Below, in pieces: positions 12,546-64,000 of a stretch of 64,000 nucleotides of DNA. A model generated the notes under the pieces. It had not been told where the DNA came from, did not search any database, and worked only from the letters and a program-made list of their open reading frames with translations. Every line of letters begins with the position of its first letter. The stretch's first letter is position 1. Made by a program: the position numbers and the translations under genes. Source of the DNA: Lama glama (taxonomy: Eukaryota); assembly GCA_028534125.1 (NCBI GenBank), contig JAPYYK010000103.1:1302001-1366000 (forward strand), in the 5' to 3' direction.

Positions 12546-14603
12546 ATTAGATTAACCACTACACCACAAGTAATGACTCCACCAGGCAAAAATTCACAAT
12601 GACGGCCCTCAAATGGCCAAGTGTGGCTCCACAGTGACTGCAAATAGATGCTGAGTTGTGCACCTGACAAGTGCAGAAACTCTTTAAGATGTACACATAA
12701 ACAGAGGAGGCCATTCCATAGAGGAATGGGGGAGGAGCCGGGAGAGACAGCAAGAAAAGGACAAAAATCCTGTAAGTACAGGCAGTAGCCAGGATATTTC
12801 AATCTGCTGCTGGGGAGCTGGGGAGCCCACATCCAGGCCTGCCGCTCCTCCACACTTGAGTCATAACTGGGTGCTTCTTCCTGGCAAAACCAATTTTGCC
12901 CACAGCCATCAACATCTTTTCCCCCTTTGAAAGCACTCAGGAAGAACTGAGAGAGAAAGGTAAATTGCACTCCCTCTGGAAGCCTTAATAAGTTCCTGGT
13001 AAATTAGCCAGCACTCTTCTCTCTGAGTGATCTCAAGAGATTCTTAACCTCCTACTGGAAAAAATTATGCTTTTATTATTTCTTTTTCTTTAACCTTCTG
13101 TCTTCACTGTGCTCTTTGTATTAGCTTTCTCTCATCACCATTTGGTTACTCTGAATGCTTTGTAGTGATCTCTGCTGTCTTCCCTCTTAGCTTAACATCT
13201 GTGCCTGTCCTCTCGCACCTTTTCTCCTCTTACCTGTGAGATACTGTGTATTCAGGGTGTTTTATTTTTCTCCCTGTCCTTTATTTTCTGGCTCATCCAC
13301 ATCATCCTTTTCTCCACTCAAGGCCTGCTCATTTCCTGGTGACAGTTGCTGTCAATCCCGGAGATATTTAGTATTCTAGTCCCCAAACAAGCACACACAG
13401 CCCCAAGTAAGCAAAGAAGAGACTGCTCCATCGCAGTCATCAGACTGCAGGCCGTTTTACCGATGAAGATCTAAGCCCATGTAGTCACCTACAAGCTATG
13501 GTATTTTGTCCTGCAAAAGTTATTCTAAGTCGTTGACTAGGATGGCTATGGAAGGAGAAACACACTAGCAGCCAGGGACCTAGTAGAATGGGAGGTGGGT
13601 GCCTAGAGAAAAACCATCAAAAGAAGATCTGGTCAAGAAGAAGGTCAGGTCAGAAAAAGGAATGTTTAAACGGAAACAATTTAGCCCCTGAGGCCAGAGG
13701 TATTCTCTTAATTTCTCCAGGGAAGAAAAAAGTGGTTTTATTAAAGATTCATCGACGCTGACTCTGTTTTTCCTGACAGGACCAAGAGAAAGCTCAGAGC
13801 AAATCTGTTATACTGCAGTGAAACATCCCCACCCGAGGAAATACGGCACGTTTCCTGTAGCGGCCAGCATTCATCTCCATCTATCACGAGAGCAGCACGG
13901 CTACTCACTAGAAACAAATGTTCTAGATACAGTGTGTCAAACACTGAATGATGGAAACCCCTGAGAAACCACAGGGAGTATGCTGGAAGCAAACAGACCA
14001 GAATGTTGAAAAGACTTCTGACCATTTTCCACAGATGAGCGTAACTTGGAACCAACCTGAAATAATGCATTTGACCTTCATAAAAGGGTAATGGATGGGC
14101 ATTTAACATGAGGCCAGGCAGACCTCAGAGAACTCGAGTTTTAATGAGGACAGATGATGAGACAAAAATAAATAAACAAAGAGGTGGATAACTCAATAAA
14201 AAAGATCTGCTCCCCCAAAGAAGGTTAAGCAGATAGTCTATGAGGCATATTTGAAGAATGATCAGCCTCTGCTACAGGCTTTCTTCCATTTTTGAGAACT
14301 TCTCTCCACTTGGCCATAGAGGCAACCTACCTTCTGAGACCCACTCAGTGGTGTAAGAAACATGCAGTTTCCAGATCAATCTTACTTCATAATATTTTGA
14401 GACTAACTCAGGCTCTCTCTACCTTGATTAACTTCATTTGCTGAATAGAAATAACACCAAATGACAGAGTTCTATTGTTCCCTGTTTGGGAAAGAAATAC
14501 CACCTGACATCAACTAGAGGACGTTGTCTTAATTTAGAAAAGGTTTATCTGGGGATCTGCTTATCACCAGTCTACCTACTTGACAGCTAGCTAGCTACCT
14601 GTA

Positions 14604-14694
14604 CTTCTTCTTTTTTTTTTTCATTTTGTTTTTTATTGAAGTGTAGTTGGTTTACAATGTTAGTTTTATGTATATAGCAAAGCAATTCAGCTAT
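14604..14694 (-). mobile_element. Truncated L1 3' tip with TSD
   Basis: T-rich tail plus TTTATTGAAGTGTAGTTGGTTTACAATGTTAG; flanked by direct repeat TACCTGTA (14596-14603 and 14695-14702). Confidence 0.7.
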
Positions 14695-25159: not shown

Positions 25160-25344
25160 CTTTTTATTATTTTTTATTGAAGTATAGTCAGTTTACAATG
25201 TTATGTCCATTTCTGGTATATAGCATAATGTTTCAGTCATACATATACATATGTATATTCATTTTCATATTCTTTTTCATTATAGGTTACAATAAGATAT
25301 TGAGTATAGTTCTCTGTGCTATATAGAAGAAACTTATTTATCTA
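25160..25344 (-). mobile_element. Camelid-type L1 3' end, 185 bp, with 17-bp TSD
   Basis: TTTTATTGAAGTATAGTCAGTTTACAATGTT...GAGTATAGTTCTCTGTGCTATATAGAAGAAA; TSD TAGCCTATCATATTTTA (25143-25159) / TAGCCTCTCATATTTTA (25345-25361), 1 mismatch. Confidence 0.85.
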
Positions 25345-27850: not shown

Positions 27851-28284
27851 AGGGGAAGTCCCTATGTGTCCTCTCTCATTCCTCTGGTCTTTCTGTGGCA
27901 TTGTTCTTCCTTTCTTTGGATTATTGCATGTGTTCTTGATGCTTCTAGTCACACCGGGCAGCTAAGAGAAACGTGAAATGTATCCGATTTTGATCTGCAT
28001 GCTGCTCTGTGGGAAAGTGGCAAATCTCAAACACAAGAATCGCCACCCACATACATTTCTGCAGTAAGTAAATTGATCTATATTACAGTTAACATTAAAG
28101 ATAGGGGTTACCTTTACCTCTGAAATTTCTTTCAGTTCATTTTTTGAGTATAAAAGTAACCACAGTTGGTACTGATACCCAGGTCTCTGACTATGTTGCT
28201 TAAGAAAGGGAGGGTAGAGTAATTTAGACAGAAGTCTCTGTTCAGTTTTGGGGGAGCAGGCACAGGGAAGAGTATTTTTCTTAC

Positions 28285-28500
28285 CAGGTGATGCCCAAGA
28301 GATCCTTCTGACACGCGTGAGCACGCACACATGCACACACACTCACCCGCGCACTCACACACACACGCACTCGCACACCCACACACTTGCACACACACGC
28401 AGGACTGTCTGTCCCTGGCTGTCCACGTCTGCGCCCTCCCTCTCCGGGGCGGGCGGGTTGCTGCCATCTCTGCAGTGGCAGGTCCTGATGCAGCAGCCCA
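28285..28500 (-). promoter_or_regulatory. Putative (alternative) promoter and non-coding first exon of a minus-strand gene
   Basis: Local CpG enrichment in a CpG-poor window; GC box GGGGCGGGCGGG (28446-28457); (GT/GC)n tract; strong 5' splice site CTG|GTAAGA with the exon ending at 28285; no clear upstream acceptor. TSS position and gene identity unknown. Confidence 0.55.
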
Positions 28501-29487
28501 GGTGACACTACTACTGGTTCCTCGTCACAGATGCCCCCTCCCTCTTGCCACCATGTCTCTGCAAATACAATATCCACCGCTACAGAGACAAGCTGGTGGG
28601 GGTAGGGAGGGCAGAGGACACACATCCCTTGTCATCGATCAAGAGTCCACTTCACAGTCACTTTCCCTGCGATTTCTCTCCAGACAACGCCAGCTGACCA
28701 GCAGCCTTTATCCCTTCTGCGATATCCCAGACTCTTACACGTTACACCGAAATTATCAGTGCTCACAGTTTTCTCTGCTAATAGACTATGTTCTCCGAAG
28801 GCAGGACTAGTTTATATTTATCCTTTCACCCTTCTTTCCACTTATCAAAATTCATTTATGTACTTCCTGGCTGGACTCACATACCCCTTCCTTCATGGAG
28901 CTTTCTCACATCCCTCTGCCGAATGGAATGACTCTCTCCTTTAAACCCCATGTAACTCCTCTGAACCTCTCTTATGTCGCTTTTTATTTTCTTCCATGTG
29001 TTACCCTTGTCTGGGTCTACTCCCCTCACCTGACAGTCATCTGCTTTTCAGCAATTTATGCTTCCTCTTCTGTCTGTCTCTCTCCTCAACACTTTAGCTT
29101 CTCCTTACAATCCAAAAAGGTGCTCAATGTGTCTGATTGAACTGAAGGCACCACCCTGAAATTTATCAGAAGATATAATTTGAGAAATTTCACATGTGTT
29201 TTTTTGCATTTCTTTTTGCAGGGTGAGGGAGCAAGAAAACTTCAGGGTTCCCTGCTGAGTCTGAGTCATCTGGTAATTCTGAGGCATAAATATAAGAGAA
29301 ATTAGGGGCTTACTTAAGGAAGCACACATACAAATGTGTATGTAAAATGTTCTATGCATTAACATTAAAATAATATACATAAATACAGCAATGCAAAACA
29401 TACTATGCATTTATCAATTACAGAGGTAAAGATAAATCTAGGAGGAGAAAGGCATGTCTGCTCAGCAATGTAAAGGGTTCTCTCTTT

Positions 29488-29651
29488 TTATTATTCTAAT
29501 TATTCTTTATTCCTTTCTGCATTGACTCTTTTTAGGGAGGGGAATAATTAGGTTTATTTTATTAGTTTATTTTAACAGAAGTACTGGGAATTGAACTCAG
29601 GACCTCAAGCATGCTAAGCATGCACTCTACCCCTGAGCTATACCCTCCTCC
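29488..29651 (-). mobile_element. Vic-1-type camelid tRNA-derived SINE with 15-bp TSD
   Basis: Minus strand GGAGGAGGGTATAGCTCAGGGGTAGAGTGCATGCTTAGCATGCTTGAGGTCCTGAGTTCAATTCCCAGTAC...AAACCTAATTATTCCCCTCCC with A/B boxes; TSD AAGGGTTCTCTCTTT (29473-29487) / AAGGGTTCACTCTTT (29652-29666). Confidence 0.9.
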
Positions 29652-44510: not shown

Positions 44511-44918
44511 AATAGAATTCAAGAATTTTTTTTGGAATCTTAGAGGAAAATGCATGGAACACAAGCACTTCTCCATTCTTCAGAAGTTGGTTTGAGGTAG
44601 TACATATTTTATAGAGTGAATGAAAAAAATAAAAGATTAGTGGCCTAATAAAGAGCTAAAGCCTCCTTCTTGATAAGATCAAGCTGCCGGAGGCCAGCTC
44701 CACAATTAGAAGGTACTTGAGGCTGGTCCCTGTATGTTAAGGAGATTTGAGCCCCACTTGTGTTTCATGGTAGAAACAGCACTGAAAGGAAGTCAAAAGA
44801 TAGAGGCCATGAGCGACACAGGGGAAGTAATCAAGACCTCCCTGTTGACCACAGAGGTGGTGTCAGGGTTTTGCTGAGAACTCACAGGTCATAGATGACC
44901 AATAAAATAAGAGTGAAT

Positions 44919-44994
44919 AATAAGGCCTGTATGCACTAAGTGCCTAATATATGAATGAGTAAACAGGTTTGAATTTAGAGTTCCCTTTACTCAT
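44919..44994 (+). repeat. 76-bp dispersed duplication, copy 1
   Basis: 71/76 identical to 47878-47953, same orientation, ungapped. Confidence 0.9.
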
Positions 44995-46170: not shown

Positions 46171-47017
46171 CATTCTTCAGTGAAGGCTGGTTCTCAAGAC
46201 CCTTGACTCTGTTTCCCGTCCATCTCTCTCTTAATTCAGAACTCTGACATTTTAGGTTGACTTTCTTTTTCCCTCTATTTACACAGATTAAATCTTTTTT
46301 TCTTATCTCTAAATCATCTGGGGATTGTTTTCCTCTAATAAAATGGCTACACTCCTGATTAAGGAAAAGTGATAAACCTGCTGTCAATTACCTTAATTGA
46401 TCTGACAACCTGATTAGGCCCAGAAAGGGGAAGGTTTCCTTAGCAGAACCTTATTAAAAAGGAGAAAACAAAACAAAGGCCCATGTAATTAAAATGTGAT
46501 CGCTGGCAATGAGTATGTAAAATCAGCCCTGAGAGGTATTAGTGATGGGAAAACATTTCTAAATGGCATCTTAGGGAGACAAAGGAACACAAGACGGTCA
46601 AACAAATCAGTGGGCTACCAGGGGAGAATGCTTAACAGAAACGCAACAATTTTTCTGAATTCTACTCACCAGTAGCTTTGACACGAACAAAATCCACTCT
46701 TGGTTTAAGGTGGGAAGAGTGTAGTTACTGGTCCCATTTGTTGTACTGTGAACCCCAAAAGAATGCCTGTTACTGGCACCATTTGTGGTTACACAAGTGA
46801 CTTTTTTTCTTCTCTAGACAACTATGCTTAAAGTAGAATCTTGGGTCCATATCTCAGTGGGGGCTGAGTAAGTTGTCCTCTGGAACTGAGTTCGGGGCAT
46901 CAATGCCACACCCTAGTCACCATGACTGCTTCAGCAAAACAGCCAGCACTTAGCCCGTGTTCCAGACTCAAGGCGTCTTCTTTTAGAATTATTTGCGATC
47001 CATTTTCTCTAACTCAC

Positions 47018-47518
47018 TATCAGACAAGTGGGGACTGAAGAGGGATTCAAGGTGAGCTGCCCCACAGGAAAAATGCACGAGGAGCCGCCATACCGCAAAA
47101 CAGACTGTTTGAGGAGCTGACATGGAGCGAAACAGCACTTTACTGCATTATAGGCGAGTGGTGCGTGCCGCGGGCAGCGGCGGCGGCAGCGGTGGCAGCG
47201 GCGGCGGCCACACCTCCTACTTCAACAAGATGGCGCACACCCGCGTGGCGCACTTGCCCTGCTCGTATCTATTTTGCCCACACATGCGCATTGTTAGTCT
47301 TTGTTCATACTGCCTACATACTACTACTAGCGCATGCGTACCTTTACTTCTTTGGTCATAAGGCTTACATAACTGGCGCATGCGTAGTGTGTATGCTACT
47401 GGCACATGCGTACATTTACCTTTTACCAGGTGCAAGCTATTGTGAACTTTGGCCTGGTCTCCACAGCCTGTTCACTTAAGGGTGGACCCCATGGCCCACT
47501 CACTTATCGCTGCCAACA
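47018..47518 (-). mobile_element. Young CpG-rich solo LTR of an endogenous retrovirus (family not recognised)
   Basis: Minus strand begins TGTTGGCAGCG and ends GTCTGATA (expected CA, one transition); flanked by CTCAC(T) at 47013-47017/8 and 47519-47523/4; U3-like repeated GCGCATGCG motifs, AT-rich box, GCCATCTTG and AGTAAA in LTR order; abrupt CpG enrichment. Confidence 0.7.
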
Positions 47519-47877
47519 CTCACTCTCAGTGGAGCACACCTTCTGAACTCATCCCACCCCTGGGTAGCCCTCAGGCCTTCAAGAACAGAAATGCAATATC
47601 GTGACTGTGTTACTTTACACAACAAAAATATCCAGGTCCCAAGCGTGCTGAGAAATAGAATATTATTAGCTAATTAGGATGAACTGTCACACTGGAGTGT
47701 TTGATTAAATTAATTAATCAAGCTGATGATTGGTCTGGAGGGGGTAGGAAGCTGTCTGTACAGTGCACCTGGTAAATTGTGCTATTAACCAGTGGTCCCT
47801 TAGAAATTTAAAGAAAAAGTATTTTTGGATCAGAAATAAACAAGTTAGCATAAATTGATATACTGATCAGAATAAAC

Positions 47878-47953
47878 AATAAGGCTTGTGTGCAGTAGGT
47901 GCCTAATATATGAATGAGTAAACAGATTTGAATTTAGAGTTCCCTTTACTCAT
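47878..47953 (+). repeat. 76-bp dispersed duplication, copy 2
   Basis: 71/76 identical to 44919-44994. Confidence 0.9.
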
Positions 47954-63964: not shown

Positions 63965-64000
63965 TTTTTTAAATTGAAATATAGTCAGTTTACAATGTGT
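63965..64000 (-). mobile_element. Camelid-type L1 3' tip running off the window
   Basis: TTTTTTAAATTGAAATATAGTCAGTTTACAATGTGT, same terminus as 25160-25344. Confidence 0.65.

Follow-up and report, generated by a model that had tools for sequence, protein, structure and literature searches.

Why should a compact, CpG-rich block stand in an otherwise CpG-poor stretch of the llama genome? An earlier note on this DNA had read positions 47018 to 47518 of a 64-kb stretch from Lama glama (contig JAPYYK010000103.1; the whole stretch of 64,000 nucleotides that was analysed is called the window here) as a young solo long terminal repeat (LTR) that forms a ready-made promoter resembling a CpG island. 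Our analysis leads to a related, more restrained reading: the block is probably a solo LTR on the minus strand that derives from an endogenous retrovirus (ERV) of class II (betaretrovirus-like), that would have been gated by NRF1 and YY1, and that most likely survives in this copy as a silenced relic.

A CpG-rich block in CpG-poor surroundings

The block spans 501 bp (47018-47518), with a GC content of 0.537 and 27 CpG, which gives an observed/expected ratio (o/e) of 0.75 against 0.20 and 0.14 in its two 2-kb flanks and 0.21 over the whole 64-kb window; without its triplet tract, the ratio is still 0.60. When the 64 kb are scanned in sliding windows of 501 bp, the highest count falls at the element (29 CpG, with a mean of 4.1), followed by a runner-up with 22 CpG at 28.3 kb. 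That the block is rich in CpG and its surroundings poor, as had been claimed, is therefore borne out. Under the Gardiner-Garden rule (200 bp, GC over 50%, o/e over 0.6) the stretch 46980-47403 passes, as does just one other stretch of the window, and under the Takai-Jones rule (500 bp, GC at least 55%, o/e at least 0.65) a single one of 600 500-bp windows passes (start 47078), exactly at the GC limit. The CpG change-points, at 47075-47410, fall within the element, and its ends are not marked by them.

The 10-mers, AT-rich box, YY1 site, GCC tract and AGTAAA that the earlier note had listed were all found where it had placed them. In the order of the minus strand, the features that we distinguish in and around the block are as follows:

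47519-47523, no strand: right copy of CTCAC (6 bp up to 47524, CTCACT)
47018-47518, minus strand: probable solo LTR, from its sequence, its CpG o/e of 0.75 and its polarity from purine/A-rich to T/C-rich
47280-47447, minus strand: tandem U3-type units of about 50, 46, 26 and (partial) 46 bp, with one NRF1-like palindrome each
47402-47411, no strand: degenerate NRF1-like copy, two mismatches to GCGCATGCGC
47376-47385, no strand: NRF1 motif, full match to RCGCANGCGY
47330-47339, no strand: NRF1 motif, full match to RCGCANGCGY
47280-47289, no strand: degenerate NRF1-like copy, two mismatches to GCGCATGCGC
47266-47275, minus strand: A-rich box, an alternative TATA-like candidate by its presumed role
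47226-47235, minus strand: YY1 motif, full match to GCCATNTTG
47170-47209, minus strand: tract of GCC/GCT triplets, in which 9 of the 27 CpG lie
47147-47152, minus strand: TATAAT, a TATA-like box 8 nt (start to start) before AGTAAA, its role proposed from the layout of EqERV-beta1
47139-47144, minus strand: AGTAAA, a variant form of the poly(A) signal that lies 121 nt before the 3' end
47018-47138, minus strand: C/T-rich tail of R-U5 type, with three imperfect repeats of 25-32 bp
47013-47017, no strand: left copy of CTCAC, which may be a target-site duplication (6 bp with 47018 counted in; weak alone)

An array of NRF1-type sites

RCGCANGCGY occurs twice in the 64 kb, both times within the element; shuffles average 0.03 sites, and none of 100 reaches this count. 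When the element itself was shuffled 3000 times with its dinucleotides preserved, 0.2% of the shuffles had two sites with at most one mismatch, and 0.4% had four sites with at most two. All four NRF1-like sites are found at the equivalent point of a unit of 26-50 bp that recurs in tandem, and since they sit in one repeated unit they cannot be counted as independent, but represent one motif that was amplified. The units have a mean column identity of 64%, with cores 62% and 83% alike, and in two of the four sites a CpG is altered relative to the sister units. Of the 'NRF1 x4' in the earlier note, then, two full matches stand (47330 and 47376), whereas the other two are degenerate copies of the repeat. 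YY1 is a less exclusive companion, as GCCATNTTG has six sites in the window, with a shuffle mean of 2.67 and 5 of 100 shuffles reaching six. The NRF1 and YY1 motifs carry the labels V$NRF1_Q6 and V$YY1_Q6 in one published listing (PMC4747542).

Polarity, poly(A) signal and tail

Read along the minus strand, the element is A/purine-rich over its first 273 nt (A 31.5%) and T/C-rich over its last 121 nt (T 34%, C 31%), and the AT skew climbs from -0.40 to about 0 just beyond the 47018 edge. With these segment limits, which were chosen post hoc, the polarity is equalled at 4 of the 5024 positions compared across the window, which all belong to a single further locus (12.7-13.2 kb), and under a neutral half-versus-half split it is equalled at 41 of 5024. 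The other locus, 12675-13226, is the sole further site with an equally strong A-rich/T-rich polarity; it shows this on both strands, and may be another repeat.

AGTAAA, which serves as the poly(A) signal in MMTV, is the only form of poly(A)-type hexamer in the element and is present on the minus strand only, with one occurrence ending 121 nt before the 3' end; a poly(A)-type hexamer 60-200 nt from the 3' end appears in 11.5% of 3000 shuffles of the element. The 60 nt after this AGTAAA are 63% C+T, and candidate CA cleavage sites are found at 47124, 47119 and 47111, which is 15, 20 and 28 nt downstream. Since the minus strand of 47100-47260 folds worse than 197 of 200 shuffles, a stem-loop in R is unsupported.

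How far can such features carry the identification of an LTR? The landmarks described as conserved are TG, a poly(A) hexamer (with AGTAAA listed as a variant beside AATAAA and ATTAAA), a T-rich region and CA, and the same sources describe single LTRs as hard to call by such features alone (PMC2664473, PMC1976444). For beta LTRs, the TATA box is reported to be poorly conserved, and HML2 transcripts to begin near the AATAAA motif (PMC2664473). A more specific comparison is offered by the horse betaretrovirus EqERV-beta1, a family for which abundant solo LTRs are reported, and whose LTR of 1361 nt is described as having its TATA box at 1217-1224 and its AGTAAA at 1239-1244, besides a C/T-rich stretch (PMC3185775). 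The llama element shares with this description a TATA-like box directly upstream of AGTAAA and then a C/T-rich stretch, a likeness that is supportive, not defining. From AGTAAA to the end of the LTR there are 117 nt in EqERV-beta1 and 121 nt here; however, the start-to-start distance from TATA to AGTAAA is 22 nt there and 8 nt here, the LTRs measure 1361 and 501 nt, and ours has a TA end.

This layout also bears on where a promoter would lie. The TATAAT just before AGTAAA is a better candidate for the TATA box than the AT-rich box at 47266-47275; if TATAAT is the TATA box, the YY1 site and the GCC tract fall in U3 and not in a 5' leader of housekeeping type. We keep the layout with 47266-47275 as TATA box as an alternative. 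The internal anatomy supports the earlier proposal of a solo LTR on the minus strand, which we consider likely.

Ends of the element

On the minus strand the element begins with TG, at 47518, and ends in TA when the flanking repeat is read as 5 bp or in AT when it is read as 6 bp. A 3' end of TA or AT instead of CA speaks against an LTR, as does the poor terminal inverted repeat (3 of the first 6 positions). The CTCAC(T) flanks and TG...TA ends of the earlier description are present, but a duplication of this kind is common by chance: the window contains 827 candidate pairs with TG...CA or TG...TA ends and a flanking repeat of 5 bp, which cover 88% of 2000 random 333-bp cores, and in 136 of these pairs the spanning repeat reaches or exceeds the 7 bp of the element. 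It is thus the features taken together, and not the duplication alone, that support the boundaries. CACTCACT recurs at 47497-47505, 20 bp inside the 5' end, and with this recurrence a shorter pair of boundaries with the same 5-bp repeat, 47018-47498, is formally possible.

Beyond the ends, no TGG follows the 3' end as the start of a primer-binding site, no polypurine tract lies beside the 5' end (11 of the 20 bases before it are purines), and the 64-kb window holds no second copy of the element. These absences fit a solo LTR.

Could the block instead be a genuine small host CpG island, the promoter or enhancer of a non-coding RNA for example, in which NRF1 and YY1 keep the DNA unmethylated in the germline and the LTR-like ends are due to chance? 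Its ends are weak as evidence, its sequence is found under four organism labels, and over 46980-47403 it is one of the two Gardiner-Garden islands of the window. Moreover, its plus-strand GGC-type tract runs into AAGATGGCG, which is the layout of housekeeping 5' leaders. However, the tandem motif units of 26-50 bp, the three repeats of the tail, the strand polarity, and the poly(A) hexamer with a C/T-rich tail behind it are all traits of an LTR; the element contains no GC box, and neither of the two long frames tested has a credible protein relative. We regard a host island as very unlikely.

Several other identities were considered and rejected. A processed pseudogene of a housekeeping gene is at odds with a plus-strand ATG frame of 43 codons, a missing poly(A) tail and a short flanking repeat; a DNA transposon or MITE with the absence of terminal inverted repeats; a structured RNA with the lack of any Rfam match up to E 1; and a coding gene, in the form of the 146-codon plus frame, with the lack of relatives in translated-frame and protein searches.

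Which class of retrovirus?

The assignment of the solo LTR to class II draws on the layout around AGTAAA, and several further characters can be set beside it. At 501 bp, the element is near the mean of 544 bp given for chimpanzee class II LTRs, most of which are reported with Lys primer sites (PMC1779541). Its duplication measures 5 or 6 bp depending on base 47018, and the 6-bp reading has the length known from MMTV, a length that is described as not strictly bound to the genus (PMC3790719; PMC4422553). In the host lineage, one survey of the dromedary reports no ERVK (PMC6675863), and another, using de novo libraries, gives 410-679 ERV2 elements for each camelid genome (PMC8605555); the ERV2 LTR retrotransposons of the latter likely come from the same host lineage as our element and likely belong to the same class, and its family may be among them. 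Within the scope of our literature search, outside of which lay most subscription papers and Repbase Reports, we found no description of a camelid betaretrovirus-like family that matches it.

A class I or III ERV with a 5-bp duplication could also be the source of the solo LTR, its boundaries and way of working unchanged, which we hold to be unlikely. The 5-bp reading keeps TG...TA, one base off the canonical TG...CA, and 5 bp is the length of ERVL-type duplications. Duplications of 5 bp are also reported for the gammaretrovirus Rev-A and for lentiviruses (PMC3790719), and ERVL, MaLR and ERV1 elements are given as more numerous than ERV2 in camelids (PMC8605555). Against this, AGTAAA, the adjacent TATA-like box and the spacing to the end match a betaretrovirus LTR (PMC3185775), the CCAAT box described as conserved in gamma LTRs (PMC2664473) is absent from the element, and the published use of NRF1 concerns class II LTRs (PMC12420836).

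A germline route like that of IAP?

How might a class II LTR of this design have worked? Recombination between the two LTRs of a provirus likely left the solo LTR. In the unmethylated state, NRF1 dimers on the repeated sites, together with YY1, would bring about transcription by RNA polymerase II from the TATA-like box, with a start about 25-30 nt downstream of this box, near 47120. R would be very short, as in MMTV-type LTRs, and AGTAAA would be the poly(A) signal in what had been the 3' LTR. We place the start here, and propose so short an R, because TATAAT adjoins AGTAAA and HML2 transcripts start near AATAAA; with this start U3 would take in the whole series of NRF1 units as well as the YY1 site and the GCC tract. 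CpG methylation would block NRF1, and activity would therefore be limited to hypomethylated germ cells, as in mouse IAP. The CpG richness would most simply be a viral inheritance that has partly decayed, and the present copy is most likely a silenced relic without a host role.

The comparison with IAP can be followed further. NRF1 is reported to be methylation-sensitive, to bind the unmethylated IAP LTR and to be needed for IAP expression in hypomethylated mouse spermatogonia (PMC12420836), whilst YY1 is reported to bind IAP, MLV and HERV-K LTRs, and can either activate or recruit TRIM28 (PMC3915180, PMC10968565). Among the LTR-overlapping YY1 sites described as gained in DNMT triple-knockout cells, 34 of 42 are in ERVK (PMC7605266). 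The mouse IAP LTRs (IAPLTR1/1a/2, ERVK) are, by these accounts, likewise CpG-rich, regulated by NRF1 in male germ cells and bound by YY1. In contrast to IAP, the llama element has its NRF1-type sites in four tandem units, has AGTAAA as its only poly(A)-type hexamer, and has neither a CRE nor a half-CRE (TGACG); IAP uses a CRE, to which about half of the reporter activity of IAPLTR1a is attributed (PMC9729108). An IAP-like activation by NRF1 is, for our element, a prediction from motifs, with two of the four sites matching RCGCANGCGY. An LTR that uses NRF1 and YY1 is not a novelty: this promoter design is already published for class II LTRs, with both factors described for mouse IAP.

Relatives, distribution and age

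Our searches for relatives covered metagenome, viral, prokaryote, plasmid and protein collections, and neither support nor refute an LTR family. A 20-base pattern of the element had no matches in metagenomes and none in GTDB genomes, both of them non-mammalian collections; in translated-frame scans, also of non-mammalian collections, 0 of 598 and 0 of 7 candidates were confirmed; protein searches confirmed 0 of 189 candidates and returned 0 of 1.84 billion representatives; and the plasmid search gave no match to the element. Two apparent relatives were rejected. An IMG/VR match (L001) shares only 23 bp and GCC-type low-complexity sequence with the element, and is put down to chance; and L002, the only one of 35 candidates to be confirmed in a translated-frame scan, is bacterial, with 38% over 40 residues in the triplet tract.

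Sequencing runs were compared by words sampled from a 1.5-kb stretch with the element at its centre. Of the 24 runs listed, 14, from six studies and under four organism labels, contain 0.87-0.95 of these words. Words from the flanks only make up 64% of this stretch, and words from the element only 32%, so that each of the 14 runs contains most of the element, either at the 47-kb site or as near-identical copies. The shares imply a sequence difference of 0.2-0.5%, and the element is probably common to several close taxa. Six RNA runs, three of them labelled as reproductive-system, contain 0.04-0.17 of the 1.5-kb words, values that are no evidence of expression or of a tissue.

How old is the element? 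A point of reference in the window is 29576-29647 on the minus strand, where a tRNA-like head (Rfam tRNA, 41.8 bits) is followed by an A-rich tail; this looks like a tRNA-derived SINE, which we take to be the camelid Vic-1, and the stretch 29520-29650 has 0 CpG. The CpG retention of the element says that it is younger than this SINE copy without remaining CpG. The TpG/CpA excess (o/e 1.33/1.46 in the element versus 1.21/1.20), the altered CpG in two of the NRF1 units and the lack of a CA end point to ageing; indeed, both the excess and the CpG differences in two of the four NRF1-like sites are expected under methylation. 'Young', as the element had been called, is thus a relative and undated term. 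The TpG/CpA excess and a 3' end that is not CA tell against the word, and youth is not established because runs under four organism labels hold most of the sequence of the element (0.87-0.95 of the words).

Neighbourhood and possible host use

The window's only other Gardiner-Garden CpG island lies at 28228-28529, and the LTR stands about 18.5 kb upstream of it, on the same strand. On the minus strand this island is rich in GT repeats and resembles a non-coding first exon, with a donor-like GTAAG at its end, near 28284. An 88-bp direct duplicate, 44907-44994 and 47866-47953, is 90% identical, with its two members 2959 bp apart and the LTR in between, and the similarity drops sharply on both sides of it. 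A short 3' tail of LINE type is present in three copies (14635-14660, 25176-25201 and 63973-63998, minus strand), presumably from camelid L1. Together with the tRNA-derived SINE, these copies make the camelid host lineage of the earlier note plausible.

Has the host made use of the element? It might be LTR-derived and co-opted as an upstream promoter or enhancer, its CpG richness reflecting that it stayed unmethylated. CpG retention is high despite an apparent sharing across four organism labels, a splice-donor-like GT[AG]AG starts at 47017, the first base beyond the 3' end, and the second CpG island with its donor-like GTAAG follows downstream on the same strand. Yet the TpG/CpA excess, and the differences at a CpG in two of the four NRF1-like sites, count against lasting freedom from methylation, and Pfam matched none of the 150 frames scanned (of the 164 minus-strand frames of at least 40 codons in 1-28400), so that no gene was identified for such a promoter to serve. 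Co-option is, in our view, highly improbable. A bolder scenario goes further: an undescribed camelid betaretrovirus-like family in whose U3 an NRF1 site was amplified into a tandem array, which has converged on the germline route of IAP, and of which the present copy stays unmethylated and serves the 28.2-28.5 kb island downstream as a promoter or enhancer specific to the lineage. This, too, we would call improbable. Our preferred reading remains the silenced solo LTR.

Implications

As a single solo LTR whose activity is predicted only, the element is an ordinary mammalian repeat of modest importance. Should a family be confirmed, it would bear on how many class II ERVs camels have, a point on which published counts conflict, with none in one report (PMC6675863) and 410-679 in another (PMC8605555). 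A confirmed family would also suggest that LTR promoters gated by NRF1, and sensitive to methylation, are not a peculiarity of rodents, and its tandem NRF1 array would offer a test of this outside the rodents, with copies that can be compared for methylation and for expression in the germline.
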